DNA of 64,000 bases from Oscillospiraceae bacterium (GCA_015065295.1 SVQN01000004.1:3047-67046), one strand, 5' to 3'. Positions 1,293-53,610 are shown, numbered from the stretch's first letter. Notes: generated by a model not told the origin, from the letters alone. Translations and numbers: made by a program.

Positions 1293-2039
1293 TCACTTTG
1301 CCTCCCAGAGAATGTCGTTTTTCATGAGGATCGGACCGTCCTTGCAGATGCGCTTGTAGCCCGTGATGGTCTTGCAGGAGCATCCCATGCACGCGCCGAA
1401 GCCGCAGCCCATGCGTTCTTCAAAGGAGAACTGTCCGTCGGTTCCTTCGGGAGTCGTACGCCATACGGCTTTCAGCATCGGTTCCGGACCGCAGGTGCAG
1501 ACGTGCGTATAGGTCATGTCCTGCATGGCCGTGGTGACAAAGCCCTTGATGCCCATGGAGCCGTCTTCGGTCGCTACGGTCAGTTCCGCGCCGAGTGCCT
1601 TGAATTCGTCGCAGAGGATCGCGTCGTCTGCCGTACGGAAGCCGCAGATGACCTTGACCTTCTTGCCTTCCGCAACGAGAGTCTTTGCGAGGAGGTAGAG
1701 CGGAGGAACGCCGACACCGCCGCCGACGAGAACGGGTTCATCGCCGGTCAGGGATGTGTCATATCCGTTGCCGAGGCCGGTGAGAACGTCGAGCTTCACG
1801 CCCGCGCCGTAAGCGGCCATCTGTTCGGTGCCTTCGCCGACCACCTTGTAGATGATGGTCAGTTCGTCCCCGTTCACGTCGCAGACGGAGATCGGACGGC
1901 GGAGGAACTTGCCTTCGAGGAGAATATTCACGAACTGACCGGGACGGGTGATGTCCGCGGTATCCCCCGTGAGCACCATTTTGTAGGTGTCACGGGCGAT
2001 TTTTACGTTGGACTGTATTTCAAAAATTGTCTGTTTCAT
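1293..2039 (-). CDS. pyrK: dihydroorotate dehydrogenase electron-transfer subunit
   Basis: 248 aa with a ferredoxin-reductase-like fold and a C-terminal 2Fe-2S Cys cluster (CGFGACMGCSC). It sits between carB and pyrD. Confidence 0.9.
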   Translation of the reverse strand: MKQTIFEIQSNVKIARDTYKMVLTGDTADITRPGQFVNILLEGKFLRRPISVCDVNGDELTIIYKVVGEGTEQMAAYGAGVKLDVLTGLGNGYDTSLTGDEPVLVGGGVGVPPLYLLAKTLVAEGKKVKVICGFRTADDAILCDEFKALGAELTVATEDGSMGIKGFVTTAMQDMTYTHVCTCGPEPMLKAVWRTTPEGTDGQFSFEERMGCGFGACMGCSCKTITGYKRICKDGPILMKNDILWEAK

Positions 2040-2055
2040 GATGATTCGGATACCC

Positions 2056-5000
2056 TTATTCGTTGATGGTGGAGATGCCCATCGTTACTTCTTCGAGAAC
2101 GTCGAGGAGAACCTTGACGGTGTCGAGAGCGGTGAACATCGTTACGCCGTTTTCAACCGCGCACTGACGGATTTCGTGACCGTCGGACAGAACGCCGGTG
2201 GAGCCGTAGTCACGGGTATTGATGACGTAGGTGACATAGCCCTGACGGATGGAATCGAGGATTTCTTCGCTTCCTTCGATGATCTTCTTGCGGGTTCTGG
2301 TGCGGATGCCGTGTTCCTTGAGGAACTGTGCGGTACCGTGGGTTGCTTCGATGTTGAAGCCCATGCGGTAGAAGCGTTCGATCAGCGGGAGAGCTTCTTC
2401 CTTGTCCTTGTCCGCAACGGTGACGAGCAGGGTACCGTAGTTGACAACCTGCATACCGGATGCCTGAAGTGCCTTGTAAAGCGCGCGGGTCATCTTCTTG
2501 TCGTAGCCGATTGCTTCGCCGGTGGACTTCATTTCGGGAGAGAGGTATGCGTCGAGACCGCGCAGCTTGGAGAAGGAGAATGCGGGAGCCTTGACGTACC
2601 AGCGATCCTTTTCCTTCGGGTAGATTTCGGTGATGCCCTGTTCCCGCAGCGAGACGCCGAGGATTGCAAGGGTACCGATGTCCGCGAGGCTGTAGCCGGT
2701 GGACTTGGAGAGGAAGGGAACGGTTCTGGAGGAACGCGGGTTGACTTCGATGACGTAGACGAAGTCGTTGGAGTCAACGATGAACTGGATGTTGTAAAGA
2801 CCGACGATGCCGATGGAAAGACCGAGCTTCTTGGTGTAGTCGAGGATGGTGTCCTTTGCCGCCTGCGAGATCGAGAAGGTCGGGTAAACGGAGATGGAGT
2901 CACCGGAGTGAACGCCCGTACGTTCAACAAGTTCCATGATGCCGGGTACGAAGACATCCGTACCGTCGCAGACTGCGTCTACTTCGACTTCACGGCCGAC
3001 AATGTACTTATCCACAAGAACCGGACGGTCTGCGTCGAGCGCAACGGCGGTTTCGAGGTAGTGACGGAGCATTTCTTCGTTGGCAACGATCTGCATTGCG
3101 CGGCCGCCGAGAACGAAGGAAGGACGTACGAGAACCGGATAACCGATGCGGGCTGCGGTCTTGACGCCGTCTTCGATGTTGGTGACGGCCTGGCCGGTCG
3201 GCTGGGGGATGCCCTGTTCCTTGAGGAGCTTTTCGAATGCGTCGCGGTTTTCCGCACGGTCGATCGCTTCCACGCTGGTGCCGATGATGTTGACGCCGCG
3301 CTTCTGGAGACCTTCCGCAAGGTTGATCGCGGTCTGACCGCCGAGACCTGCGATAACGCCGTACGGCTTTTCCAGGTCGATGATGTTCATAACGTCTTCG
3401 ATGGTCAGCGGTTCAAAGTAGAGCTTGTCGGAGCAGGTGTAGTCGGTGGAAACGGTTTCGGGGTTATTGTTGATGATAATGGCTTCGCAGCCGCTGTTCT
3501 TGATGGTCATGACCGCGTGAACGGTGGAGTAGTCGAACTCAACGCCCTGACCGATACGGATCGGGCCGGAACCGAGAACGATGATCTTCTTGCGGTCGGA
3601 TACGACGGATTCGTTTTCGTCCGCGTAGGTGGAATAGAGGTAGGGGATGTAGGATTTGAATTCGGCTGCACAGGAGTCGATGGTTTTGTAAACCGGACGG
3701 ATGTCCTGTTCGCGGCGGAAGTTCCATACAGCGTCTTCGGTGGTATTCCAGAACTTTGCAACCGCGCGGTCGGAGAAGCCGTACTTCTTGACGTAGCGGA
3801 GAACTTCGGCATCCATCGGATGGTCGGCTGCGAGCTTTTCGAGTTCGACGATGTGACGGATCTTTTCGATGAACAGCATATCGATCTGGGTCGCGTCGCA
3901 GATGAGACCGGCGTCGATCTTGCGGCGGAGGAGTTCCGCGATGGCATAGATGCGGTCGTCCGTACCTACGGTAATGTAGGAGAGAAGATCATCGGTGGAG
4001 ATGTTGTCGAACTTGGGCAGGTGCATGTGGTACGCGCCGATTTCGAGGGAACGGATTGCCTTGAGAAGGCTTTCTTCCAGACTGCGGCCGATGGACATGA
4101 CTTCGCCGGTCGCCTTCATCTGGGTGGAAAGGCTGTTGTTTGCGTCGGAGAACTTGTCGAACGGGAAGCGCGGCATCTTGGTGACAACGTAGTCAATGGA
4201 CGGCTCGAAGCACGCCGGTGCAGATGCGAGCTGGATTTCGTCGAGGGTCAGACCGATGGCGATCTTTGCGGTAACGCGTGCGATTGGGTAGCCGCTGGCC
4301 TTGCTTGCGAGAGCGGAGGAACGGGAAACACGCGGGTTGATTTCGATGAGGTAGTAGTCGAAGGACTGCGGGTCGAGAGCGAACTGGACGTTGCAGCCGC
4401 CTTCGATACCGAGCTTGCGGATGATCTTCAGCGCGGAGTCGCGGAGAAGGTGATATTCTTTATTGGTGAGCGTCTGGCTGGGCGCGACAACGATGGAGTC
4501 CCCGGTGTGGATGCCGACGGGGTCGATGTTTTCCATGGAGCAGATGGTGATCGCGGTGTCGTTGGAGTCGCGCATGACTTCAAATTCGATTTCCTTGTAG
4601 CCCTTGATGCTCTTTTCCACAAGAACCTGGCTGACCGGAGAGAGCTTCAGCGCATTCTTGAGGAGCGGGAGAAGTTCTTCATCGTCGGAAGCGAAGCCGC
4701 CGCCGGTACCGCCGAGGGTGAATGCGGGACGGAGAACGACCGGGAAGCCGATTTCGTGAGCCGCCGCGATGCCTTCTTCGAGGGAGTTTGCGATGAGAGA
4801 GGGAAGAACGGGTTCGCCGATTTCCTGGCAGAGTTCCTTGAAGAGTTCACGGTCTTCCGCCTTTTCGATGCTTTCCGGAGGCGTACCGAGCAGTTCGGTC
4901 TGGCATTCGCGGAGGATGCCCTTCTTGGCGAGCTGCATTGCAAGGTTCAGACCGGTCTGACCGCCGATGCCGGGGATGATTGCGTCCGGACGTTCGTAGC

Positions 5001-5235
5001 GGATGATCTTCGCAACGTATTCGAGGGTCAGGGGTTCCATGTAGATCTTGTCCGCAACGGACGGGTCGGTCATGATGGTTGCGGGGTTGGAGTTGACGAG
5101 GATGACTTCGCAGCCTTCTTCGCGGAGTGCGAGACAAGCCTGAGTTCCGGCGTAGTCAAATTCCGCCGCCTGACCGATGACGATCGGACCGGAACCGATC
5201 ACCATTACTTTTTTGATATTCTCTTTCTTCGGCAT
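2056..5235 (-). CDS. carB: carbamoyl-phosphate synthase large subunit
   Basis: 1059 aa. The N-terminus MPKKENIKKVMVIGSGPIVIGQAAEFDYAGTQA is typical of CarB, and the ATP-grasp halves are duplicated. Confidence 0.97.
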   Translation of the reverse strand: MPKKENIKKVMVIGSGPIVIGQAAEFDYAGTQACLALREEGCEVILVNSNPATIMTDPSVADKIYMEPLTLEYVAKIIRYERPDAIIPGIGGQTGLNLAMQLAKKGILRECQTELLGTPPESIEKAEDRELFKELCQEIGEPVLPSLIANSLEEGIAAAHEIGFPVVLRPAFTLGGTGGGFASDDEELLPLLKNALKLSPVSQVLVEKSIKGYKEIEFEVMRDSNDTAITICSMENIDPVGIHTGDSIVVAPSQTLTNKEYHLLRDSALKIIRKLGIEGGCNVQFALDPQSFDYYLIEINPRVSRSSALASKASGYPIARVTAKIAIGLTLDEIQLASAPACFEPSIDYVVTKMPRFPFDKFSDANNSLSTQMKATGEVMSIGRSLEESLLKAIRSLEIGAYHMHLPKFDNISTDDLLSYITVGTDDRIYAIAELLRRKIDAGLICDATQIDMLFIEKIRHIVELEKLAADHPMDAEVLRYVKKYGFSDRAVAKFWNTTEDAVWNFRREQDIRPVYKTIDSCAAEFKSYIPYLYSTYADENESVVSDRKKIIVLGSGPIRIGQGVEFDYSTVHAVMTIKNSGCEAIIINNNPETVSTDYTCSDKLYFEPLTIEDVMNIIDLEKPYGVIAGLGGQTAINLAEGLQKRGVNIIGTSVEAIDRAENRDAFEKLLKEQGIPQPTGQAVTNIEDGVKTAARIGYPVLVRPSFVLGGRAMQIVANEEMLRHYLETAVALDADRPVLVDKYIVGREVEVDAVCDGTDVFVPGIMELVERTGVHSGDSISVYPTFSISQAAKDTILDYTKKLGLSIGIVGLYNIQFIVDSNDFVYVIEVNPRSSRTVPFLSKSTGYSLADIGTLAILGVSLREQGITEIYPKEKDRWYVKAPAFSFSKLRGLDAYLSPEMKSTGEAIGYDKKMTRALYKALQASGMQVVNYGTLLVTVADKDKEEALPLIERFYRMGFNIEATHGTAQFLKEHGIRTRTRKKIIEGSEEILDSIRQGYVTYVINTRDYGSTGVLSDGHEIRQCAVENGVTMFTALDTVKVLLDVLEEVTMGISTINE

Positions 5236-5239
5236 TGTC

Positions 5240-6328
5240 TTACTCTCCCTTCATGAGTGCAATGAATTGATCGAACAGGTAATCGCTGTCCTGCGGGCCG
5301 GGATTGCTTTCCGGATGATACTGTACGGAGAACACGCGGTCTGCGGGGCAGGAGAGCCCTTCGATGGTGTTGTCGATAACGTTGACATGGGTGATCGTCA
5401 TGGTGTCCGCGATGCTTTCGGGATTGACGACGCACGCATGACCCTGCGAGGTGATTTCAATCTTGCCGGTCGCAAGGTTTCTGACGGGGTGATTGCCGCC
5501 GTGATGACCGAACTTGAGCTTGGTCGTGGTCGCGCCGTACGCCTTGGCGATGATGAGGTGGCCGAGGCTGATACCGAAGACCGGAACCTTGCCGCGGAGT
5601 TCGCGGACGGTTTCCACAACGGGCTTGACATCGTCGGAGCTGCCGGGGCCGTTGGAGATCAGTACGCCGTCCGGCTTCATCTTGAGGATTTCAAAAGCGG
5701 TGGTGTTCCACGGAACCACGGTTACATTGCAGCCGCGTTCGTTGAGTGCGCGGATGATGCTGGTCTTGATGCCGCAGTCCACGGCAACGACGTTGTACTT
5801 GTGGTTTGCGGTGCGGGAGTACCACTTCTTGCGGCAGCTTACGCGCATCACCTGATCGTGCGGGATCGGGGTGCAGGCGATTTTTTCGAGAGCTTCTTCG
5901 GTGGGAAGATCAATGTCCACGATGATGGCACGGCAGACGCCGTTGTCACGGATGTGGCGGGTCAGCGCGCGGGTGTCGATGCCTTCGATGCCCGGAATGT
6001 CGAAGTCTTCCATGACTTCGGAGAGGGTCTTGGTGTAGCGGAAATTGGAAGGCTGGTCATTGTATTCGCTGACCACCAGGCCGCCGAGGGTCGGAACCTT
6101 GGATTCAAAATCCTCGTCCGTGATCCCGTAGTTGCCGATGAGCGGGTAGGTCATGACGGCGATCGCGTCGGTGCAGGACGGATCGGAGATCATTTCCTGA
6201 TACCCGACAACAGCCGTATTGAAGAAAAGTTCACAGGCGTGTTCGGTCTTGGCACCGAAGCCGCGTCCGGGATATACCGAACCGTCTTCCAGAACCAGTT
6301 TTCTGTTGAGTGTCATTTTGTCAGCCAT
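5240..6328 (-). CDS. carA: carbamoyl-phosphate synthase small (glutaminase) subunit
   Basis: 362 aa with a CPSase small-chain N-domain and a class-I GATase domain (GISLGH, QYHPE). GGAGG RBS. It lies directly upstream of carB. Confidence 0.95.
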   Translation of the reverse strand: MADKMTLNRKLVLEDGSVYPGRGFGAKTEHACELFFNTAVVGYQEMISDPSCTDAIAVMTYPLIGNYGITDEDFESKVPTLGGLVVSEYNDQPSNFRYTKTLSEVMEDFDIPGIEGIDTRALTRHIRDNGVCRAIIVDIDLPTEEALEKIACTPIPHDQVMRVSCRKKWYSRTANHKYNVVAVDCGIKTSIIRALNERGCNVTVVPWNTTAFEILKMKPDGVLISNGPGSSDDVKPVVETVRELRGKVPVFGISLGHLIIAKAYGATTTKLKFGHHGGNHPVRNLATGKIEITSQGHACVVNPESIADTMTITHVNVIDNTIEGLSCPADRVFSVQYHPESNPGPQDSDYLFDQFIALMKGE

Positions 6329-9017: not shown

Positions 9018-9223
9018 GATTTCCTCCGGGGAATCTATAAAAAATAAAGTATTTTCTGGTAAGTACAGGAAATAAATTTCAGCCTGATAAGTGTATCATA
9101 CTCCCCCGGTCCGGCGCAAGAGCAATTTCGTGGATTTTTCCGGAGGCGGAATACCGGACGATTGTAGGAAATTACAAGGTTTTGTGAAAATCCGTAAAAA
9201 AACGTGAGTTCGATGGAATTCTC

Positions 9224-9276
9224 GGGGAAAACTTTTTTGAAAAAAAGTTTTCCCCGAACCCCTTTCAAAAAACTTC
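9224..9276 (+). repeat. Rep-1 copy A1 (hairpin + tail)
   Basis: GGGGAAAACTTTTTTGAAAAAAAGTTTTCCCC-GAA-CCCCTTTCAAAAAACTTC. Confidence 0.9.
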
Positions 9277-9350
9277 AAACTGGGTAAAATGATAAAGTTT
9301 GTGCAGATTTTTTGTTGGATTTGCACCGCACCTTGTTGATTCATTTGTCT

Positions 9351-9404
9351 GAAAGTTTTTGAGGTGGGGTTTGGGGAGGAACTTTTTTCAAAAAGTTCCT
9401 CCCC
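9351..9404 (-). repeat. Rep-1 copy A2 (inverted relative to A1)
   Basis: GAAAGTTTTTGAGGTGGGGTTTGGGGAGGAACTTTTTTCAAAAAGTTCCTCCCC. The stem variant GGGGAGGAAC/GTTCCTCCCC stays complementary. Confidence 0.85.
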
Positions 9405-9418
9405 ATCGAACTCACGTT

Positions 9419-9450
9419 AAAAAAGGCACCGCCGGAACAGCGATGCCTTT
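9419..9450 (-). terminator. Rho-independent terminator of the 9460-10044 gene
   Basis: Minus strand: GGCATCG-9 nt loop-CGGTGCC followed by T6. It lies 10 nt after the stop. Confidence 0.75.
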
Positions 9451-35541: not shown

Positions 35542-36852
35542 ATGTTCAAAGCAAAATCCGAATTTGAAAAGAACTCGTGGCTGCTGGTTGCTTACTGCTG
35601 GCTCGCGTATGCCACCAATTACATCGGACGGAAGAATCTGTCCGTATGTCTCGCCGACATGATCGCCGAAGGAGTTACCGACAATGTCTCCGGCGGTACG
35701 ATCGGCACCTGCTTCATGCTCTGCTATGCCATCGGGCAGTTCACCAACGGCTGGCTCGGCGACCGCTTCCATCCCCGCTATATGGTCTGTACCGGGCTTC
35801 TCTGTTCCGGTCTTATGAATGTGTTTATGGGACTGAACTCCAATAACTTCCTGTTCATGATCATCTGGGCGGTCTGCGGGTTCTCCTGCTCGCTGCTCTG
35901 GTCCCCGATCATCCGCGCGGTCTCCACATGGACGACGGACGAGATCAGCCATGCGGCGGCAGCCAGCCTGTCCGCGACCATCCCGATCGGTACGATCTGC
36001 TGCTACCTCATCTGCGCGGCCGGTCTGAAGTTCTTCAGCTGGCGCGTGTCCTTCATGATGTGCGGCGCGGTGCTGATCGTCATGGCGGTCATTCTGCACA
36101 TCTGCTTCGGTACGATCAAAAATCACATGACCGAAGAAAACGCGAAGGCTCCCGTTCATCACGACAAGGCGCACCAGACTTCCGCACAGGCGAACATCAA
36201 GGTGTTCTGCGCCGGTCTGGTCTTTGCCGCTGTCGGCATTCTCTTCAACGGCATGATCAAGGACGGTCTCGACCTTTGGATCCCGACGGTTCTCGGCGAC
36301 AAGTTCATCCCGTCCTCGTCGGTTGTATCGCTGATCTGCACGATTCTTCCGCTGCTGAACATCTTCGGCGCGTATGCGGCGCGCGATGTGTTCCACCGCT
36401 TCAAAATTGACGAGCTGACGACGTGCAGCGTCATGTTTGCGGTCAGCACGATCTCTCTGGCGATCGTGACGGTGTTCATCCACATCATTCCCGCAAAAAC
36501 GGCGGAAGCGGTCATCGGTGCGGGCGATGTGATTCTGGCAATTTTCATCACGCTTCTTCTCGCGCTGTCGAGTGCATCCATGCTCGGCGCAAATACGATG
36601 CTCCTGACGTTCATCCCGCTGCACTTCGGCAAAGTCGGACGTGCGTCCACGGTAACGGGGATGCTGAACTGCTTCTCCTATGCGGCGGCAGCGGTATCGA
36701 GCATTGCGATCGGCTCTATTTCGGAAGTGTTCAGCTGGGAAGTAGTGTTCTGCGTGTTCATCGGTGCGGCGTTCGCGGGAGCGGCGGTCTGCTTCGCGGG
36801 ACACAAACAGCTCAAGCGGAAAACCGATGAGCTGGACGCGTATCATGGCTAA
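35542..36852 (+). CDS. MFS transporter
   Basis: 436 aa, ~12 TM segments, MFS loop motif GWLGDRF. The stop TAA is inside Rep-2 copy P6. Confidence 0.85.
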   Translation: MFKAKSEFEKNSWLLVAYCWLAYATNYIGRKNLSVCLADMIAEGVTDNVSGGTIGTCFMLCYAIGQFTNGWLGDRFHPRYMVCTGLLCSGLMNVFMGLNSNNFLFMIIWAVCGFSCSLLWSPIIRAVSTWTTDEISHAAAASLSATIPIGTICCYLICAAGLKFFSWRVSFMMCGAVLIVMAVILHICFGTIKNHMTEENAKAPVHHDKAHQTSAQANIKVFCAGLVFAAVGILFNGMIKDGLDLWIPTVLGDKFIPSSSVVSLICTILPLLNIFGAYAARDVFHRFKIDELTTCSVMFAVSTISLAIVTVFIHIIPAKTAEAVIGAGDVILAIFITLLLALSSASMLGANTMLLTFIPLHFGKVGRASTVTGMLNCFSYAAAAVSSIAIGSISEVFSWEVVFCVFIGAAFAGAAVCFAGHKQLKRKTDELDAYHG

Positions 36853-36931
36853 GGGCTAAGGACTAAGGGTGAATGACTGAGGCTGAATTTCCTGTCAGGC
36901 TGACAGACGGGAATTTCAGCCTTGATTTTTT
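36847..36931 (+). repeat. Rep-2 copy P6 (left arm + short terminator hairpin variant)
   Basis: GGCTAAGGGCTAAGGACTAAGGGTGAATGACTGAGGCTGAATTTCC...GGGAATTTCAGCC followed by TTGATTTTTT. Confidence 0.85.
36881..36931 (+). terminator. Terminator of the MFS gene (inside Rep-2 P6)
   Basis: GGCTGAATTTCC...GGGAATTTCAGCC (12 bp, 1 mismatch) followed by TTGATTTTTT. Confidence 0.75.
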
Positions 36932-37045
36932 GATCCTGAGGATTAATTTTTTGGAGATTGTAAAGCATAACATTGACATTTGATTTACAATATGATTGAG
37001 GATTGACTACAACGATTTTGAAAATATGCAATACAGAGCGGAATC

Positions 37046-37189
37046 ATTCGTAGGGACACGGCGTGCCGTGTCCGTCTATCAATTTGGACAAACGATATTT
37101 CGTTGGATATCCATCCAAACCGGATGTTTTATAGAAATATGCTCTGGTCAAATTGTTTGGCGGACACGGCACGCCGTGTCCCTACGAAT
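37046..37189. repeat. Perfect 29-bp inverted repeat pair flanking an 86-bp AT-rich core
   Basis: ATTCGTAGGGACACGGCGTGCCGTGTCCG (37046-37074) is the exact reverse complement of 37161-37189. Each arm is itself a hairpin (GGACACGGC/GCCGTGTCC). Confidence 0.9.
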
Positions 37190-37226
37190 CGCCATTTTGG
37201 GCTTTGCATCTTTTTTGGAAATTATG

Positions 37227-37352
37227 GTAAGGGCTAAGGACGAAGGGTGAATAACTATGTCAAACTTTATGTCTGTTGGACTTCCCGAAGGGAAGGTCCG
37301 TTTGACGGGCGATTTGACTTAGTTATTCACTCTTAGTTTTTAGCTCTTAGTC
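37227..37352. repeat. Rep-2 copy P7
   Basis: GGTAAGGGCTAAGGACGAAGGGTGAATAACTATGTCAAA...TTTGACTTAGTTATTCACTCTTAGTTTTTAGCTCTTAGTC. This is the only copy not adjacent to a stop codon. Confidence 0.85.
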
Positions 37353-37363
37353 AATTTTTTCTC

Positions 37364-37392
37364 TTGACCTTCCTTCCAATTTAATGTATAAT
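37364..37392 (+). promoter_or_regulatory. Putative promoter of the DUF512-der-plsY operon
   Basis: TTGACC-17 nt-TATAAT. Confidence 0.55.
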
Positions 37393-37437
37393 ATAAATTG
37401 TATCATTATGTTTTTTATTAAATCGGATGGATAAACT

Positions 37438-38733
37438 ATGGTTGAAATCACCGGGGTTCTGCCCCATTCGAGAGCGGCGCGCGCCGGTATCCGTGCCGGA
37501 GATGTCCTGCTCGAGATCAATTCCCATGCAATAGGCGACGTTCTCGATTACCGCTTCCGCCTTGCCGAGGATGTGGTCATCCTGAAGCTCCACCGCGGTG
37601 CCGACCTTCTGGAAGTCAGAATCAAAAAGGACACCTACGACGATATCGGTCTGGAATTCGGTACGCCCCTGATGGACAAAAAGCACCGCTGCGAAAACGG
37701 CTGCATTTTCTGCTTCATTGACCAGAATCCGAAGGGGATGCGCGAAACCATCTACTTCAAGGACGACGACAGCCGTCTCTCCTTCCTCCACGGCAACTAT
37801 ATTACCCTCACCAATATGCGCGACGAGGACATTGACCGCATCATTGAAATGCACATTTCTCCCGTCAATGTCTCCGTTCATTCGACCAATCCCGAGCTGC
37901 GCGTGAAAATGATGAAGAACAAGCGCGCCGGCGAAGTGCTCCGCTATCTCCGCAAGCTCGCGGATGCGGGAATCAAGCTGCGCGGACAGATCGTCCTCTG
38001 CCGCGGCATCAACGACGGCGACGAACTCACACGCAGTATGACTGATCTTGCAGCGTATTATCCCGCGCTTGACAGTGTTTCGGTCGTTCCTGCCGGTCTG
38101 ACCGCGTACCGCGAAGGTCTTTTCCACCTCGAACCCTTCACCGCCGAGGAATGCGCCGCCGTGATCGATCAGGTCGAATCGTTCAACGCGACCCTTGAAG
38201 AACGTCTGTTCTTCGCGTCGGACGAATTTTATATCAAATGCGGACGTCCTCTCCCGGAAGGTGCCTACTACGGGGAATATCTCCAGATTGAGAACGGCGT
38301 CGGGATGCTGACTTCGTTCGGCTCGGAATTCGATTTCATGCTGGAAAACCTCCTCGATGACGAAAAACTTGCGAAGCGGGAAATTTCCGTTGCCACCGGC
38401 GAAGCGGCGTATGACTTTATCGTCCGTCAGGTCGAAAAACTCACGTCCGCCTGCCCGAATCTGACGTGTCACGTCCATAAAGTGAAAAACAATTTCTTCG
38501 GCGGGGAAGTCACCGTCACCGGCCTTCTGACCGGTACCGATTTCGCAGATCAGCTTGCCGGAAAACCGCTCGGCGAAACGCTGTACCTCTCCCGCACGAC
38601 TCTGCGGGCCGAAGGCGACCTCTTCCTCTGCGGAATGTCCCCGGACGAATTATCCGAAACCCTCGGCGTCAACATTGAATTTATCGAAAACGACGGCAGC
38701 GAATTCTGCGTAAAACTGCTCGGTCTGGAGTAA
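37438..38733 (+). CDS. DUF512 protein (PDZ + radical-SAM-like)
   Basis: 431 aa with an N-terminal PDZ-like segment (GVLPHSRAARAGIRAGDVLLEIN) and the Cys motif CENGCIFC. It occupies the conserved position upstream of der. Confidence 0.8.
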   Translation: MVEITGVLPHSRAARAGIRAGDVLLEINSHAIGDVLDYRFRLAEDVVILKLHRGADLLEVRIKKDTYDDIGLEFGTPLMDKKHRCENGCIFCFIDQNPKGMRETIYFKDDDSRLSFLHGNYITLTNMRDEDIDRIIEMHISPVNVSVHSTNPELRVKMMKNKRAGEVLRYLRKLADAGIKLRGQIVLCRGINDGDELTRSMTDLAAYYPALDSVSVVPAGLTAYREGLFHLEPFTAEECAAVIDQVESFNATLEERLFFASDEFYIKCGRPLPEGAYYGEYLQIENGVGMLTSFGSEFDFMLENLLDDEKLAKREISVATGEAAYDFIVRQVEKLTSACPNLTCHVHKVKNNFFGGEVTVTGLLTGTDFADQLAGKPLGETLYLSRTTLRAEGDLFLCGMSPDELSETLGVNIEFIENDGSEFCVKLLGLE

Positions 38734-38878: not shown

Positions 38879-40216
38879 ATGGCAAAACCTGTGATTGCGA
38901 TTGTCGGACGGCCGAACGTCGGCAAGAGCACGCTGTTCAATAAACTCATCGGGGAACGCCGCGCCATTGTTGAGGACGTTCCCGGCATCACCCGCGACCG
39001 TATCTACGGCGAGACCGAATGGAGGGGCCGCAAACTCATGGTCATCGACACCGGCGGGATCGAGCCGAAGACCGACAACATTATTCTTCAGAAAATGCGC
39101 GAACAGGCGCAGATCGCCATTGATATGGCGGACGTCATCCTGTTCGTCTGCGATATCCGCACAGGTCTCCTCGCCGACGACCTTGACATCGGTATGATGC
39201 TCATGCGCAGCGGCAAGCCCGTTGTCCCCTGCATCAACAAGGCCGACAAGATCGGCGATCTGCCTGCGGAATTCTACGACTTCTATCAGCTCGGCTTTGA
39301 AATCGAGCCGATCGCGCTGTCTTCCCTCCACGGAAGCGGTTCCGGCGATGTGCTGGACGCGGCTCTTGCTGCCCTTCCGGATGACTTTGACTCCGAAGAA
39401 GGGGACGACGATGCCGTTTCCGTTGCCGTGATCGGAAAGCCGAACGCCGGAAAATCCTCCATCGTCAACCGTCTCTGCGGCGATGAACGCTGCATTGTTT
39501 CCGATATCCCCGGCACCACCCGCGACGCCATCGACACTACCATCGAAAACGAATTCGGCCGTTTCAACCTCATCGATACCGCCGGGATCCGCCGTCAGGC
39601 AAAGGTTGAAGACCGCGTCGAAAAATTCAGCGTCCTCCGCGCGAAGATGGCTGTCGAACGTGCCAATGTCTGCCTGCTCATGGTTGACGCGAAGGAAGGC
39701 GTGACCGAACAGGACGAAAAGATCGCCGGCATCGCACATGAAGCGGGCAAGGCGTCCATCATCTGCATCAACAAGTGGGACCTTATCGATAAGGACAACA
39801 GCACTACCAACGAATTCAACAAGAAAGTTTACGACGCGCTGTCCTATATGACCTACGCGCCGATTATGTATATCTCCGCAAAGACCGGTCAGCGTGTGGA
39901 CAAGCTGTTTGAACAGATCAACTACGTCCACAACCAGACCAATATGCGCGTGTCCACCGGTATGCTCAACGACGTTCTCGCTGATGCCGTTGCGCGTGTT
40001 CAGCCGCCGTCCGACAAAGGCAGACGTCTCAAGATTTACTATATGACCCAGATTTCCGTTGCGCCGCCGACCTTCGTTATTTTCTGCAACAACGCGGAAC
40101 TCTTCCACTTCTCCTATCAGCGGTACATCGAAAACTGCCTCCGCCAGACCTTCGGCTTCAAAGGCACCCCGATCCGCCTCATTATCCGTCAGAAAGGCGA
40201 CGAGGGTGAAGAATAA
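38879..40216 (+). CDS. der: ribosome-biogenesis GTPase Der (EngA)
   Basis: Two G domains (GRPNVGKST, GKPNAGKSS) plus a KH-like C-terminus. True start is ATG 38879 (MAKPVIAIVG, AAGGAG RBS); the track ORF start 38783 reads through Rep-1 copy E. Confidence 0.95.
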   Translation: MAKPVIAIVGRPNVGKSTLFNKLIGERRAIVEDVPGITRDRIYGETEWRGRKLMVIDTGGIEPKTDNIILQKMREQAQIAIDMADVILFVCDIRTGLLADDLDIGMMLMRSGKPVVPCINKADKIGDLPAEFYDFYQLGFEIEPIALSSLHGSGSGDVLDAALAALPDDFDSEEGDDDAVSVAVIGKPNAGKSSIVNRLCGDERCIVSDIPGTTRDAIDTTIENEFGRFNLIDTAGIRRQAKVEDRVEKFSVLRAKMAVERANVCLLMVDAKEGVTEQDEKIAGIAHEAGKASIICINKWDLIDKDNSTTNEFNKKVYDALSYMTYAPIMYISAKTGQRVDKLFEQINYVHNQTNMRVSTGMLNDVLADAVARVQPPSDKGRRLKIYYMTQISVAPPTFVIFCNNAELFHFSYQRYIENCLRQTFGFKGTPIRLIIRQKGDEGEE

Positions 40217-45499: not shown

Positions 45500-45515
45500 T
45501 TGATTATAGTTTTTC

Positions 45516-48621: not shown

Positions 48622-49050
48622 TTATTCGCGGATTTGGTAGAGGTAATAGGTGTCCTTGTTTTTGGTGTACACTGCGATGGCATTTTCGTTGTTGGTTACG
48701 GCGTAGAAGGGAGTGCCGACAGAGCAGTACGGCGAGGCGTTATCGGGGACAGTGTATTCTTCAAAATTCCGGATTTCGGAAGGAACGGAATTTTCAATAT
48801 AACCGAGTAACTTTCCGACATTTTCGAGCGGAACGGTTGTTTCACCCCAGTCGCCTTCGTAAGTTTGACCGTTGTATTTGACAAAATCAATCCATTCCAC
48901 CATGGCGAGCTGTCCTTCTTCCGGTTCCGGTTCTTCCGTGATGGTTTCCACAATCGGCGGGGATGCTGTTTCGGCAGTTTCGTCCGCAGTATGAGTGCAG
49001 GCGAGCAGGCAAAGGATGATACCGAGAACGATCAGCAGCAGTTTTATCAT
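48622..49050 (-). CDS. hypothetical lipoprotein
   Basis: 142 aa from ATG 49050 (GGAGG RBS). Lipobox CLLAC followed by an acidic Pro/Glu linker. Confidence 0.65.
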   Translation of the reverse strand: MIKLLLIVLGIILCLLACTHTADETAETASPPIVETITEEPEPEEGQLAMVEWIDFVKYNGQTYEGDWGETTVPLENVGKLLGYIENSVPSEIRNFEEYTVPDNASPYCSVGTPFYAVTNNENAIAVYTKNKDTYYLYQIRE

Positions 49051-49270: not shown

Positions 49271-50182
49271 ATGACGATCCAACAGTGCAAATATATCCTT
49301 GCCATCGCACGTCTCGGCTCGATGAACGAAGCGGCCAAGGCTCTTTTAGTGTCGCAGGCGAGTCTTTCGACGGCGGTGCGGGAACTGGAGAACGAATTCG
49401 GCATCCACATTTTCGACCGCTCCAACAAGGGCGTACGCATCACGCGCGAAGGCTCGGAGTTCATCCGGTACGCGCGGCAGCTTCTGGCACAGTACGAAAT
49501 CATCACCGACCGCTACGAACGCGACGACAAAAAGACCGTCCGCAATTTTGCCGTCACGTCCCAGCATTACGACTTTGTCGCGGAAGCGTTCGTCCGCTTT
49601 ATGAAAAAATTCAGTTCAGACTATCATCTTTCCCTCAAGGAAGCGCGCACCATCGAGGTTATCGAGGATGTGAAGAATCTCAATTCCGACATCGGTATTC
49701 TCGCCTACCTGAAAGCACCGGCAGGCGGGTATATGGAACGGTACCTCAAGCGGAACGGTCTGGAATTCCGGCAATTGTTCGAAACCTGTCCGCACGTTTT
49801 CATGGGGCGGCACAATCCGCTTGCCTCCCGGGAAAAGCTGACCCGCGAAGACCTGACGGAGTACCCGTACATCACCTACGATCAGGGGGAAGCGGGACCG
49901 GTGGAATTCTCCGAAGAACTCTCCGAATACAGCCAGTCGAAGAAGCACATCCGCATCAACGACCGCGCGACGCTCATGAATCTGCTCCTCAGCACAGACA
50001 GCTACACTCTCGGTACGGGGGTCATGACCTCCGACCTCAACAACAGCGGCAGCGTGATCGCCATTCCGCTCCTTTCCAGCGACATCTACACGGTCGGCAT
50101 CATCAACCGCGCGGATGTCGGACTCAGCGAAGACGCGGAGCGGTTCATCAAGATTCTGTACGAAACGGTCGGGAACCGGTGA
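49271..50182 (+). CDS. LysR-family transcriptional regulator
   Basis: 303 aa with N-terminal HTH MTIQQCKYILAIARLGSMNEAAKALLVSQASLSTAVRELE. Confidence 0.9.
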   Translation: MTIQQCKYILAIARLGSMNEAAKALLVSQASLSTAVRELENEFGIHIFDRSNKGVRITREGSEFIRYARQLLAQYEIITDRYERDDKKTVRNFAVTSQHYDFVAEAFVRFMKKFSSDYHLSLKEARTIEVIEDVKNLNSDIGILAYLKAPAGGYMERYLKRNGLEFRQLFETCPHVFMGRHNPLASREKLTREDLTEYPYITYDQGEAGPVEFSEELSEYSQSKKHIRINDRATLMNLLLSTDSYTLGTGVMTSDLNNSGSVIAIPLLSSDIYTVGIINRADVGLSEDAERFIKILYETVGNR

Positions 50183-50226
50183 ACGAACGATTTTATTATT
50201 TTAAATAAATGAAAAGGAGAACCATC

Positions 50227-51717
50227 ATGAAGACGAAACGAACCCTCGCATGGATTCTTGCCCTTTTGATGCTTGCTTCCTCGCTGGCGGCGTGCAGTGC
50301 TCCCGAAGAAGCGTCGGCAGAGGAAACCGGCGCACCGTCGGCAGAAGCGGAAACGGTTCCGGAAGAGGCGGAAACCGAAGACGTGGACAGCCGTGCGTCG
50401 CTGTCGGACAATCTTCCGGAAGGACTGGATTACGAAGGCTACGAATTCCGGATCTTCACTTACTCGCCGACCGCGTATGAAGTGGAGGAACTGACCGGCG
50501 ACGTGGTCGAGGACTCCAAGTACGCGCGGAATCTGGACATTCAGGAACGATTCAACGCGGTCATCAAAGCGATCGCAACGCCCGGGATCGCGGAGCTGGA
50601 TGCCGGTCTGAAGGCGAGCGTCATGGCGGGCGACCATGCGTATGACATTGCCATCCCGCACCAGATTCAGAGCGGCCCCGGCTTCATCAACGGAGATGTC
50701 ATCCGTCCGTGGAACGACGTACCTTACATTGACGCGACCCGTCCGTGGTGGAACCAGACGATCAACGAAACCATCCGGATTCTCGACCAGCAGTATTACA
50801 TAGCGGGCTATATCACCATGCCGACGCCCTTCTGTATGTATGCGAACAAGGGTCTTCTGGCGGATTACGGCTACGAGGACATCTACGGCATCGTAAAGGA
50901 AGGCACATGGACGCTTGACAAGCTGGCGGAAATCACGTCGAAGGCATACGTTGACCTTGACGGCGGTGGTACGGTCGATACGACTGACCAGTACGGCATC
51001 AGCTTCAACAATGACAACACGACGCTGAACTTCATGTACTCGTCCGGAATGTACTCGGTTATCATCGACGAAACGACGGGTATGCCGGTTCCGAATGTAT
51101 TCAACGACAAGATGATCTCGCTCATCGACAAGATGTACAATCTGATCTACGAAGGAAACCAGACGCTGTTCACGACGTACAACACGCAGAAGGAACAGGG
51201 CATCGGCGGCTTCCACGAAGGACGGATTCTGTTCCTCTGCGGCGGTGTCGGCGACCTTGCAACGCACCGTGACGCGGACATCGACCTCGGCGTTATCCCC
51301 TATCCGAAGTGGGACGAAGCGCAGGACACCTACCACACGCACGTTGACGCATGGAACGGTATGCTCTGCATTCCGAAGACCGCGCAGGACAGCGACCTCG
51401 AGCGCACCGGCGTGATCGTCGAAGCGATGGCGGCCTACACCTACAAGTTCGTCATCCCGGACTACTACGACGTTGCTCTCGGCACAAAGTACGTCCGCGA
51501 CGAACAGTCCCGCGAAATGCTCGACCTCATCTTCGACGGTGTCGTCTACGACTTCGGCTACATCTTCGACTCCTGGAACGGCTGCACCTGGACGCTCCCG
51601 AACCTCATGACCCAGAAAAAGACCGACCTCGCCTCCTACTGGAAGGGCATCGAAAAGAAAGTCAACAAGTTCTACGAAAAGCTCTACAAGTCCGTTGAGG
51701 AAAACGCGAACGGCTGA
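50227..51717 (+). CDS. extracellular solute-binding lipoprotein (SBP paralog 5)
   Basis: Start at ATG 50227 (MKTKRTL; GGAG 9 nt upstream). Lipobox LAAC, DLDGGGTVDTTDQYG loop. Confidence 0.85.
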   Translation: MKTKRTLAWILALLMLASSLAACSAPEEASAEETGAPSAEAETVPEEAETEDVDSRASLSDNLPEGLDYEGYEFRIFTYSPTAYEVEELTGDVVEDSKYARNLDIQERFNAVIKAIATPGIAELDAGLKASVMAGDHAYDIAIPHQIQSGPGFINGDVIRPWNDVPYIDATRPWWNQTINETIRILDQQYYIAGYITMPTPFCMYANKGLLADYGYEDIYGIVKEGTWTLDKLAEITSKAYVDLDGGGTVDTTDQYGISFNNDNTTLNFMYSSGMYSVIIDETTGMPVPNVFNDKMISLIDKMYNLIYEGNQTLFTTYNTQKEQGIGGFHEGRILFLCGGVGDLATHRDADIDLGVIPYPKWDEAQDTYHTHVDAWNGMLCIPKTAQDSDLERTGVIVEAMAAYTYKFVIPDYYDVALGTKYVRDEQSREMLDLIFDGVVYDFGYIFDSWNGCTWTLPNLMTQKKTDLASYWKGIEKKVNKFYEKLYKSVEENANG

Positions 51718-51742
51718 TTGGTTTACAGGGGGATGTTTTCTT

Positions 51743-51795
51743 GGGGAAACCTTTTTGAGGAAAAGGTTTCCCCAAACCCCTTCCAAAACCTTTTT
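51743..51795 (+). repeat. Rep-1 copy G
   Basis: GGGGAAACCTTTTTGAGGAAAAGGTTTCCCC-AAA-CCCCTTCCAAAACCTTTTT. Follows the SBP5 stop. Confidence 0.9.
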
Positions 51796-51831
51796 AGACT
51801 GCGGTTGCCATTTGGTTACTGCAGATTTTTT

Positions 51832-52208
51832 CTTTTTGGGGGTAAAGAGATAAGGCGCCTTTGTGCAGCTGACAGCGGGGGCTGTCTCCAATGCATACGA
51901 ATATGGTGAAGCGAGCTCGCAGGGGCCACCGAGACCCTGCTCGCCGTAGCCGTGGAGTATGTTTTGAAATCTTGAAAGGGTTTTGAATTCAGCTACATGG
52001 TTAGTCTGACATATAGGAAACCTGTATGGCGAGTCTAAATCGAAGGTTTCCTTCACGGCGAGGGAAGTCAGGGTGGCAAGGCGTGAGCCTTGTCGCGGCC
52101 CCTGACTTCCCCAGAACGATTTTGAAAGAGTTTCAAACCAACGAAATGTCAGCGGATTGGGATATCCAAAATGGCTACGCACAGACCCAAGAAAATCCCT
52201 TATAAAAC
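51832..52208. ncRNA. Candidate structured non-coding cargo between inverted Rep-1 copies G and H (function unknown)
   Basis: No convincing ORF. It holds at least 6 local hairpins, for example the 12-bp stem GGGAAGTCAGGG (52062-52073) / CCCTGACTTCCC (52100-52111) enclosing CAAGGC-GTGA-GCCTTG. A long-range 8-bp pairing joins 51940-51947 with 52055-52062. The transcribed strand is unknown. Confidence 0.3.
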
Positions 52209-52245
52209 AAAAAATCTGCACAGTACCAAATCACTGTAGCAGACC

Positions 52246-52298
52246 AAAAAGGTTTTGGAAGGGGTTTGGGGGAACCTTTTCCTCAAAAAGGTTCCCCC
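52246..52298 (-). repeat. Rep-1 copy H (inverted partner of G)
   Basis: AAAAAGGTTTTGGAAGGGGTTTGGGGGAACCTTTTCCTCAAAAAGGTTCCCCC. Follows the Zn-ADH stop on the minus strand. Confidence 0.9.
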
Positions 52299-52326
52299 AA
52301 CGTATCCCCCGAACGAAAAATCAATG

Positions 52327-53610
52327 TTACGCTTCAACGCCAGCGTATTCGAGCAGACGCTTTTCGGCTGCGGCGCACCAGAGGTTGCCGGCTGCCTTGC
52401 AGAGAACGTCGAGATCCGCGTAGAGAGCACCGAGAGCGGTACCGGCGTTTTCTTCCGCAGCCTTGCCGAAGTCTTCGACAGCGGTGAGCGGGAGATCGAC
52501 GTGGGTGTAGATGAGCTTCTTGGCACCCTTGATCTTGGTGAGGTTGAGGGTGGTGTCCGCGCAGGCGTTCAGACCGCCGATGTGGGTAATCATGCCCGCC
52601 GGATTAATCAGCTTCTTTTCCATGAGGGCGATGGATTCCTTCATGTCGTCTGTGTTGCCGCCGGAGGTGCCGACGATGTGGGTTGCACCGTAGTGAACGT
52701 TGTAGAAGTTGAACATTGCGGAGAACGCGGTGTTGGTCGGGCCTGCGAAGAAGTTCAGACAGCCGTCACGCGCGAGGAGAGCATCGCCCATTTCAACAAC
52801 GGACTGAACCGGCGCGTAGACGAATACGTCGTTGAAGCCTTCGCCGTCCGTGAAGGAACGGAGGTATTCGGTGGGATTTTCAATCGTCGCGGTGTTGATG
52901 TAGTGCAGCTCAACGCCGTACTTTGCTGCTTCTTCCACGGTGAGCAGTTCTGCTGCGCGTGCCAGTCTCGCGTCGTCAATGTCCGTTACGATCAGGAGCT
53001 TCGGAGCGCGTCCGCCGTGAACCGCGTAGTCCGCACAGCCGAGACCCATCGGGCCTGCGCCTGCCAGAATCGCCATGTTGCCGCCTTCCACTACGCCCAT
53101 GTCGTGAACGTATACGCCCGGACGGGTGTGGTAGTTTGCGTGGTAGCCGCCGACGATGCAGCTCATCGGTTCCGCAAGGCTGCCGTAGAAGTATGCGTCG
53201 CCGTCATACGGGAGCAGACAGTCGCAGAGCATAACTTCTTCCGGAATGATGACATAAGTAGCTGCGCCGCCGCAGTACTTGTAGGAGTAACCGGGGGAAG
53301 CGAGAGAACCCTTGTAGTTGATCGCGGGCTGGATGACGAACTTGTCGCCTGCCTTGAACTGGTCAGCCCACTTTGCGCCGACCTTTACGATCTTGCCGCA
53401 GAATTCGTGACCGATGATAACCGGATTTTCCGCAACGTCGTCCGGAACTCTCTTGTGGTTGGAGCCCTGGGATGCTGCCTTATAGGAAGACATGCAGATA
53501 CTGTCGGAAATGACGCACGCGAGAATTTCGCCGTCGGTGATTTCCGGAAGTTCGAATTCTTCCATGCGAAGATCCATCTGACCGTACAGTCTTACAGCCT
53601 TAGTATTCAT
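52327..53610 (-). CDS. zinc-dependent medium-chain dehydrogenase/reductase (polyol/sugar-phosphate dehydrogenase-like)
   Basis: 427 aa with the GHEFCGKIVKVG zinc-ADH signature and a Rossmann GAGPMGLG motif. Confidence 0.75.
   Translation of the reverse strand: MNTKAVRLYGQMDLRMEEFELPEITDGEILACVISDSICMSSYKAASQGSNHKRVPDDVAENPVIIGHEFCGKIVKVGAKWADQFKAGDKFVIQPAINYKGSLASPGYSYKYCGGAATYVIIPEEVMLCDCLLPYDGDAYFYGSLAEPMSCIVGGYHANYHTRPGVYVHDMGVVEGGNMAILAGAGPMGLGCADYAVHGGRAPKLLIVTDIDDARLARAAELLTVEEAAKYGVELHYINTATIENPTEYLRSFTDGEGFNDVFVYAPVQSVVEMGDALLARDGCLNFFAGPTNTAFSAMFNFYNVHYGATHIVGTSGGNTDDMKESIALMEKKLINPAGMITHIGGLNACADTTLNLTKIKGAKKLIYTHVDLPLTAVEDFGKAAEENAGTALGALYADLDVLCKAAGNLWCAAAEKRLLEYAGVEA

Follow-up and report, generated by a model that had tools for sequence, protein, structure and literature searches.

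What occupies the space between two converging genes when that space is bounded by inverted repeats? We addressed this question for a stretch of 64,000 nt from an Oscillospiraceae bacterium (GCA_015065295.1 SVQN01000004.1:3047-67046; hereafter, the window), whose homologue matches place the host among uncultured Clostridia/Oscillospiraceae. A solute-binding-protein gene on the plus strand and a gene for a Zn-dependent dehydrogenase (ADH) on the minus strand converge here, and the intergenic gap from stop codon 51715-51717 to stop codon 52327-52329 measures 609 nt, in agreement with the ~610 bp of a first-pass annotation. In the gap, two inverted copies of a repeat, Rep-1, enclose a palindrome-rich interior, the cargo. 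The first-pass annotation had read this arrangement as resembling a non-autonomous mobile element with terminal inverted repeats (TIRs) and cargo, or alternatively as an independent small RNA (sRNA) gene insulated by hairpins. We conclude with good confidence that the two arms are 3'-end modules like the repetitive extragenic palindromic (REP) elements, with built-in terminators, and that they lie inverted because the genes converge. For the cargo, the reading that we place first, at about even confidence, is non-genic, lineage-specific filler of a cluster like the bacterial interspersed mosaic elements (BIMEs) or the REP doublets forming hairpins (REPINs). The features of the locus, including its 3' untranslated regions (UTRs), are as follows.

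50209-51717, plus strand: solute-binding-protein gene, converging on the gap; identified through homologues annotated as extracellular solute-binding proteins, which have PF13416 or PF01547.
51728-51734, plus strand: outer GGGGGAT run of the left arm, from sequence and fold; its predicted pairing partner is the CCCC in the tail of Rep-1.
51735-51797, plus strand: Rep-1 copy in the 3' UTR of the solute-binding-protein gene; nhmmer E = 1e-19 against the Rep-1 profile.
51796-51836, plus strand: left extension, part of long-form Rep-1; hairpin 51799-51824, then AUUUUUUCUUUU; -14.2 kcal/mol, z -4.3.
51837-52203, no strand: cargo, a lineage-specific, non-coding, palindrome-rich spacer; core 51905-52140, ends 51832-51842 and 52186-52200.
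52204-52246, minus strand: right extension; hairpin 52245-52213, then U-run 52212-52204; -14.7 kcal/mol, z -4.7.
52245-52305, minus strand: Rep-1 copy in the 3' UTR of the ADH gene; nhmmer E = 6e-19; perfect 15-bp hairpin 52266-52300.
52307-52313, minus strand: outer ATCCCCC run of the right arm (GGGGGAT on the minus strand), from sequence and fold.
52327-53610, minus strand: ADH gene, converging on the gap; Pfam PF08240 and PF00107.

Rep-1 is a dispersed repeat. Searches with blastn and an nhmmer profile found about 12 copies in the window, at ~9219(+), 9403(-), 17134(-), 31104(+), 35535(-), ~38850(-), 45509(+), 51735(+), 52305(-), 53968(-), 61992(-), and 63849(+). The density was ~4 per 8 kb in loci that we fetched from related metagenome-assembled genomes (MAGs), including L013-L019 and L031-L057. 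Over the window and these loci, a copy occurs about every 2-6 kb. A pattern for the 31-nt core of the repeat matched the window four times, against zero matches expected. Three parts make up the unit: a T-run, a hairpin with a perfect stem of 14-18 bp, and a tail, (G/A)AACCCCTT(T)C(C)AAAA(A)C(C)TT. Among 31 copies there were 25 different 5' arms, and nearly all copies kept a perfect stem of 14-18 bp (for example, GGGGAGAAAC/GTTTCTCCCC, GGGGAGGAAC/GTTCCTCCCC, and CTGAGGAGAACC/GGTTCTCCTCAG), which argues that the hairpin itself is what is maintained. This count rests on a hairpin check of each copy; a column-based covariation count on a MAFFT alignment was dropped because of register shifts.

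The repeat has a fixed polarity. In each assignable window copy (~12 checked), the T-rich side pointed toward the nearest gene boundary. Rep-1 stood in gene orientation directly 3' of the stop codons at 17149, 31102, 45499, 51717, 52327, 53970, and 62003, and reversed just ahead of the starts of a major facilitator superfamily (MFS) gene at 35542, a gene at 38879, and fucI at ~63815. Since the T-rich side faces the gene boundary, converging genes that both carry Rep-1 will display inverted repeats. With copies in gene orientation in 3' UTRs and reversed in 5' leaders, an mRNA bracketed by two of them would have complementary ends.

The two inverted Rep-1 copies in the gap lie where the first-pass annotation had placed them. 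Repeat finding delimited the arms as 51741-51836 and 52204-52300, which match in two parts: 51741-51816 with 52225-52300 (76 nt, 87% complementary) and 51820-51836 with 52204-52220 (17 nt, 94% complementary). The arms are prolonged outward by the GGGGGAT and ATCCCCC runs, and the left run recurs only in the right arm and, shortened, at 52186-52200. In the left Rep-1, the perfect 15-bp hairpin spans 51741-51775, between a T-run and the tail AACCCCTTCCAAAACCTTTTT. The related inward extensions of ~35 nt in the annotation are real, and their shared 17 nt at 94% exceed the identity of ~70% that it gave. We also considered whether the arms are each other's nearest relatives. This was rejected for the Rep-1 part, which is 89% identical between the arms and 91% identical to the copies at 45509 and 31104.

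The extensions have counterparts elsewhere. A segment ending in TGCAGATTTTTT follows the Rep-1 tail at equal spacing (37-38 nt from AACCCCTT) at window 9303, and the motif stands at like spacing after Rep-1 in L031, L032, L039, L048, L049, L055, and L057. A scan of genome contigs with the pattern AACCCCTT-N30-45-TGCAGATTTTTT returned 44 matches; 37 were chance matches in unrelated taxa, and the other seven were true Rep-1 copies from three related MAGs (RGIG7288, RGIG1778, and fecal_MAG_213). Because TGCAGATTTTTT follows Rep-1 at a fixed spacing at other sites, we regard the extension as a long form of Rep-1 rather than as a sequence private to this locus.

Upon folding, each extension formed a stem-loop followed directly by AUUUUUU and facing inward, one per flanking gene, which is the shape of an intrinsic terminator. 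A simple terminator scanner overlooked both owing to bulges and loop size. In other loci, TGCAGATTT(TTT) follows Rep-1 at a fixed spacing within clear terminators: in L019, GGGCAGTGCAGATTTGATGTTGCACTGCC is followed by T7 and the motif occupies the 5' half and loop of an obvious terminator; in L031 and L057, AAAGTACCGTGC...GCACGGTACTTT precedes a U-rich tract, with the motif again in the 5' half and loop; and L048 is similar. The fold predictions suggest that the two extensions are the Rho-independent terminators of the solute-binding-protein and ADH genes.

Behind Rep-1, the motif (G)TGCAGATTT(TTT)G recurs in conserved form at window 51820-51831, 52209-52220(-), and 9302-9313, at ~6385-6430 of L019, and in L031, L032, L048, L049, L055, and L057. 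Its use varies: it forms the 3' half of the stem and the U-run at the locus studied here, forms the 5' half and the terminator loop in L019, L031, L048, and L057, and lies immediately ahead of a ribosome-binding site and ATG in L049. The motif stays constant while the surrounding stem varies, and this conservation of sequence is unexplained.

We propose that the gap is the shared 3' region of the two converging genes, built largely from the genome-wide REP-like repeat. Each gene carries within its 3' UTR a long-form Rep-1: a T-run, a perfect 15-bp hairpin, a conserved C/T-rich tail, a second hairpin ending in TGCAG, and a U-run. The REP elements of E. coli are 3' hairpins that stabilise the upstream mRNA, and the first hairpin may act in the same way as a 3'-end RNA hairpin. 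The second hairpin and its U-run would serve as a Rho-independent terminator, and transcription from the two sides would stop at ~51831 and ~52204. The ~370 nt between the terminators would be lineage-specific DNA, inserted or accreted, forming the oversized centre of a BIME/REPIN-like cluster and not a gene; it would most likely be transcriptionally silent, or transcribed by read-through only, and be under little sequence constraint.

The distribution of the cargo is narrow. The locus was carried by JGI contigs at 100% identity (one at 99.8%), by the ENA contig L011 at 97.9%, and by GCA_017623875.1 (L001) at 93.8%. L066, in which the identity of the solute-binding protein falls to 88%, contains the left arm and the first 115 nt of the cargo. 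In sister taxa with an ADH of 91-96% identity, the neighbourhood of FGGY kinase, trpS, ADH, LysR, and M56 peptidase is retained, and the cargo was absent from the orthologous site 3' of ADH in all of them (L013-L016 and L019), where the gap is 57 nt (L013/L016), 125 nt (L014), 142 nt (L015), or 262 nt (L019). Rep-1 stands behind the ADH stop in L014, L015, and L019, and L013 has a plain terminator only. The clearest comparison is L014, in which the solute-binding-protein gene ends in a Rep-1-like hairpin and T-run, followed directly by the reversed ADH Rep-1. In L002/L003 (solute-binding protein 83% identical), the gene is followed by a terminator of its own, and a reversed Rep-like unit comes next. 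The occurrence of Rep-1 without cargo in sister taxa argues that the cargo was gained within a narrow clade, into a pre-existing Rep-1 pair. The first-pass annotation had suggested a search for empty sites and a count of cargo copies; the former yielded the sister-taxon sites just described, with 57-262 nt behind ADH, and turned up no empty allele within the species. The count returned no second copy of the cargo in the window, in the ~0.6 Mb of loci that we fetched, or among viral contigs (two cargo patterns, 0 matches).

The cargo diverges at the intergenic rate. Between L001 and the window, genes differed at ~2 positions per 100 nt, and 51800-52000 differed at 8, a rate similar to that of the intergenic stretch 48800-49000. 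L011 was a mosaic: from ~51896 rightward through ADH it was nearly identical to the window (3 differences in ~3.4 kb), and to the left it was L001-like. Across 51797-51895, it differed from the window at 12 positions, with many variants in common with L001. This pattern places a recombination breakpoint inside the element. We considered the unchanged core of L011 as a sign of constraint and rejected this, because it reflects the recombination mosaic.

Public MAG and metagenome contigs often end within Rep-1 or the cargo, as do L001 (at window 52020), L008/L009 (51752), L011 (51781), L066 (51946), and L002/L003. Rep-1 repeats fragment the assemblies of this lineage, and further copies may be hidden in that way.

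We searched the cargo for genes and known RNAs. Rfam gave no match in the whole window at gathering thresholds; at E <= 10, the region returned only noise (IhtA, RsaE, and miRNA models fitting generic hairpins), with IhtA the best at 25.5 bits against a cut-off of 76. The window contained no tRNA or tmRNA. No sigma-70-like promoter was found on either strand of 51600-52450 (0 sites), and the clade does use canonical promoters, such as TTGACG-17-TATAAT upstream of ADH in L013. There was no terminator oriented to end a cargo transcript; the two hairpins with U-runs both point into the gap and are those of the flanking genes. The annotation had seen no credible open reading frame (ORF) in the interior. 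Neither the 59-aa frame at 52026-52205 (+) nor a 168-codon open stretch on the minus strand through the cargo matched Pfam at E <= 10, and tblastn with six cargo frames against all fetched loci found only the homologous DNA of L066. On these results, a pseudogene or small-protein reading of the cargo was rejected. Distant-mode blastn with the cargo gave no match in plasmid and phage collections, and the arm pattern had five matches in viral contigs, none of which matched the Rep-1 profile. A scan of metagenome contigs with a cargo 20-mer recovered a single unrelated contig of high GC and missed the source locus, and is uninformative on copy number. The complete element is ~570 nt long and has no coding capacity.

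The internal helices reported by the first-pass annotation, and its long-range pairing, are all present where it had placed them: GACAGC/GCTGTC (51871-86), GCAGGG/CCCTGC (51919-40), GGAAACC/GGTTTCC (52016-51), a 12-bp stem (52062-73/52100-111) around CAAGGC-GTGA-GCCTTG, TTTGAAA-GAG-TTTCAAA (52121-37), and CTCGCCGT/ACGGCGAG (51940-47/52055-62). These stems are all perfect Watson-Crick palindromes. The core also contains a 23-nt imperfect inverted repeat, 51925-47/52055-77, around 107 nt. How unusual this folding is depends on the reference. Relative to dinucleotide shuffles, the plus strand (-139.8 kcal/mol, z -3.9) and the minus strand (-123.7 kcal/mol, z -4.9) are both highly structured, as had been claimed. 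We also folded all 849 overlapping 377-nt stretches of the window and regressed energy on GC; against this genome background, the plus strand ranked 28/849 (z -1.65) and the minus strand 181/849 (z -0.86), so in this respect the folding is only moderately unusual. The cargo is structured, yet it is not exceptional for its genome. The intergenic stretch 36850-37440 is likewise full of long palindromes, which argues that palindrome-packed intergenic DNA is normal for this genome.

That stretch, on the plus strand between the MFS gene and a gene at 37438, folds most strongly of the whole window (-174 kcal/mol at a GC of 0.42; genome-background z -5.85), with an advantage of 31 kcal/mol for the plus over the minus strand. 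In addition to a terminator and a promoter (TTGACC-17-TATAAT), it contains two palindromes, one of 144 nt (37046-37189) that carries GGGACACGGCGTGCCGTGTCC at each end and one of 122 nt (37228-37349), as well as the direct repeat TAAGGGCTAAGGAC.AAGGGTGAAT at 36850 and 37228. No Rfam family was found in it.

The ends of the cargo resemble the repeat itself. Both the left end, CTTTTTGGGGG (51832-51842), and the reverse-complemented right end, GGGATTTTCTTGGG (52186-52200), have the look of further, degenerate Rep-1 starts. Only 1 of 300 shuffles reached so high a score, and the right end carries a GGGAT prefix otherwise seen solely on the two arms. Two further complementarities were noted: the left-extension loop (51804-51813), which reads GTTGCCATTT in the window, has the consensus GTAGCCATTT in L001, L008, L011, and L066, exactly complementary to AAATGGCTAC (52169-52178) near the right end of the cargo; and TTTTCTTGGG (51736-45) is perfectly complementary to CCCAAGAAAA (52186-95). 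The likeness of the ends, the loop and core pairings, and the similar style of the unrelated stretch 36850-37440 would fit repeated accretion of palindromic repeat material at one site.

Several observations weigh against the cargo being mere filler. There is no obvious reason for 370 nt between two terminators to persist. The outer GGGGGAT and the ATTTGGT..ACTG..TGCAG extension are common to both arms and lacking in other Rep-1 copies, as would fit a single element with its own TIRs. The GC content of the cargo is 0.50-0.52, compared with 0.35-0.45 in the other intergenic DNA of the window; its plus strand folds 16 kcal/mol better than its minus strand, in a multi-branch architecture with a 21-bp hairpin (12+9 bp) capped by a GNRA loop (GUGA); and 51909-51947 is nearly unchanged in L066. 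These points bear on the alternatives considered below.

Further doublets, in which a forward Rep-1 is followed by a reverse one, were found at window 9219-9403 (185 nt, with a 16-nt apex), at L039 4375-4562, at L057 1469-1691, where a perfect 21-bp stem made by the extension arms encloses 41 nt, and at L013/L019 4666-4975, whose centre contains the trpS terminator and the ADH promoter TTGACG-17-TATAAT. The locus studied here is the largest doublet seen (571 nt), with a spacer of ~450 nt between Rep-1 tails as against 16-195 nt in the others (centres of 16, 41, and ~195 nt). The window doublet 9219-9403 is 88% identical over 195 nt to that of L039 (MAG RGIG1778), and the flanking genes are unrelated; this recurrence argues that short Rep-1 doublets spread as units. 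In contrast, no dispersal of the cargo-bearing doublet as a unit was seen, since it was found only at the studied locus.

In the wider stretches around this pair (window 9205-9420 and L039 4365-4575), the TGCAGATTTTTT motif lies at the doublet apex, and the palindrome of the window runs further outward (GTGAGTTCGAT/ATCGAACTCAC); the doublet 9205-9420 looks like a REPIN-like mobile unit. In the trpS-ADH spacer of the sister taxa (L013 4650-4990 and L019 4630-4990), Rep-1 after trpS is followed by a terminator, TTGACG-17-TATAAT, and a reversed Rep-1 in the ADH 5' leader. The window has only the trpS-side copy in this spacer.

We rank the filler reading first, an element moved as a unit second, and an orphan sRNA third. 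In the second, ~51728-52313 would be one non-autonomous mobile element, a miniature inverted-repeat transposable element (MITE) or a REPIN with an enlarged centre, whose TIRs are 95-110 nt of long-form Rep-1; it would have been inserted between the genes as a unit and mobilised in trans by a transposase whose gene lies elsewhere, perhaps of the REP-associated tyrosine transposase (RAYT)/IS200-like type. We regard this as unlikely, while noting that a link of the locus to mobile DNA is reasonable, because the arms belong to a dispersed, doublet-forming family and the cargo is missing in sister taxa. The geometry is that of the mobile-element-like structure in the first-pass annotation, and the private features of the arms, the 88% recurrence of the shorter doublet between unrelated genes, the perfect extension stem of the L057 doublet, and presence in three diverged lineages of a narrow clade (the window, L001/L011, and L066) with absence from sister taxa all accord with it. 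However, polarity alone would suffice for the inversion, and no target-site duplication was found outside the arms: the flanks (...TTTACA on the left and GAACGAAAAA... on the right) have no direct repeat, and the outermost shared bases are inverted (GGGGGAT/ATCCCCC). The failure to find a second cargo copy in the window, the fetched loci, or viral contigs, the Rep-1 parts of the arms being no closer to each other than to other copies, and the presence of the ADH-side Rep-1 in L014, L015, and L019, which indicates that it predates the cargo, also speak against insertion as a unit. No transposase was identified among the window genes, which were not exhaustively screened.

Somewhat more doubtful is the third reading, that the cargo or its core (~51905-52140) is a lineage-specific structured RNA of the plus strand, either an independent sRNA or a read-through or processing product of the solute-binding-protein 3' UTR. 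The shuffle z of -3.9, the better folding of the plus strand, the branched architecture with its GUGA tetraloop, the raised GC, and the block 51909-51947 conserved in L066 are all as expected of such an RNA. Against it, the region lacks a sigma-70-like promoter, a suitably oriented terminator, and an Rfam family; its folding is only moderately unusual for the genome; it accumulates substitutions at the intergenic level; and it is absent in sister taxa. In the left half of the cargo, a four-sequence alignment, which has low power, contained no pair changed on both sides, and strain variants break two helices: 51871-86 has disappeared from L066 and is weaker in L001 and L011, and 51963-87 has two uncompensated changes in L001. 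Perfect palindromes, which is what all of the listed stems are, are also what DNA-level inverted repeats would produce. Taken together, the missing promoter, the inward terminators, the absence of Rfam and covariation signals, and the intergenic divergence lend little support to the hairpin-insulated sRNA gene of the first-pass annotation. A related and still less probable idea is that the cargo is an undescribed structured RNA of ~230-370 nt inside a REPIN-like doublet, as a passenger of a mobile hairpin or a young sRNA born between terminators. It is most improbable that the 59-aa frame is a small protein gene: the ORF exists, with AGGA of an SD-like (Shine-Dalgarno) AGGAAA 7 nt upstream of its ATG, but it crosses a 50-nt near-perfect hairpin, has no promoter or Pfam match at E <= 10, and is not called as a gene in any public contig carrying the locus.

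With the filler reading kept in first place, how does the locus compare with known systems? BIMEs are bound by gyrase, integration host factor (IHF), and Pol I. Like REP elements and BIMEs, Rep-1 copies are short perfect palindromes of high copy number in transcribed 3' intergenic regions, occur singly or as inverted pairs, are combined with other conserved segments (here, the TGCAGATTTTTT extension), and keep their hairpin through compensatory differences between copies; by analogy with E. coli REP, a role as a 3' mRNA hairpin or terminator adjunct would be expected. Unlike the enterobacterial elements, Rep-1 resides in uncultured Clostridia/Oscillospiraceae, and its unit is longer (~60 nt, or ~100 nt in the long form) with a conserved non-palindromic tail; the 370-nt centre is also far above the BIME boxes. 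With the MITE-type elements Correia of Neisseria, RUP/BOX of S. pneumoniae, and bcr1 of B. cereus, the locus shares small size, lack of coding capacity, inverted-repeat boundaries, a position next to genes, and presence or absence between related genomes, and like them it may supply terminators or RNA-processing hairpins. It differs from them in having no target-site duplication, in that multiple complete copies were not found in the sequence searched, and in that its TIRs are independent dispersed repeats, mostly solitary. Each extension resembles the Rho-independent terminators of convergent genes: a GC-containing stem-loop with a direct U-run, downstream of the stop and facing the other gene. 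What sets the extensions apart is that they are embedded in a repeat module, whose TGCAGATTT motif is conserved while the stem around it differs between copies.

REPINs are ~100 nt long with short spacers. The inverted orientation of two Rep-1 units around a spacer, which together would form one long hairpin, resembles them, as does the recurrence of doublet 9219-9403 in an unrelated context; the ~450-nt spacer and the single copy of the cargo-bearing doublet in the sequence searched do not. In two reports, REPINs are described as REP doublets forming hairpins that are mobilised by RAYT transposases (PMC3116915, PMC3337134), with a layout of an inverted pair plus spacer (PMC3337134).

For the flanking genes, one label changed. 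The upstream gene, called SBP5 in the first-pass annotation, does not belong to family 5: a Pfam search of the protein itself gave no match, and its homologues are PF13416/PF01547 proteins. The ADH homologues bear the source name L-sorbose 1-phosphate reductase. Opposite the solute-binding-protein gene lies a minus-strand antisense ORF of 711 codons (50086-52221) with no Pfam match; its frame includes 168 further codons open across the arm and the entire cargo. Long antisense shadow ORFs accompany most window genes, for example 1987-5256(+)/2056-5235(-). They are probably a side effect of codon bias and a trap for gene callers.

The interest of these results lies mainly in the Rep-1 family itself, as the locus belongs to a known kind of element (REP/BIME/REPIN-like). 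Should the cargo prove to be expressed as RNA, it would exemplify an RNA gene that arose, or travels, within a REP cluster; the present evidence leans against this. For this uncultured rumen/cecum lineage of Clostridia, Rep-1 is both a caution and an aid to annotation, as a gene-end repeat of fixed polarity that supplies hairpins and terminator modules. It yields TIR-like pictures at converging genes, and knowing the family guards against mistaking these sites for MITEs or sRNA genes. The REPIN studies cited above dealt with Pseudomonas and enterobacteria (PMC3116915, PMC3337134), and Rep-1 offers a tractable REP/REPIN-like system in Firmicutes-type genomes.

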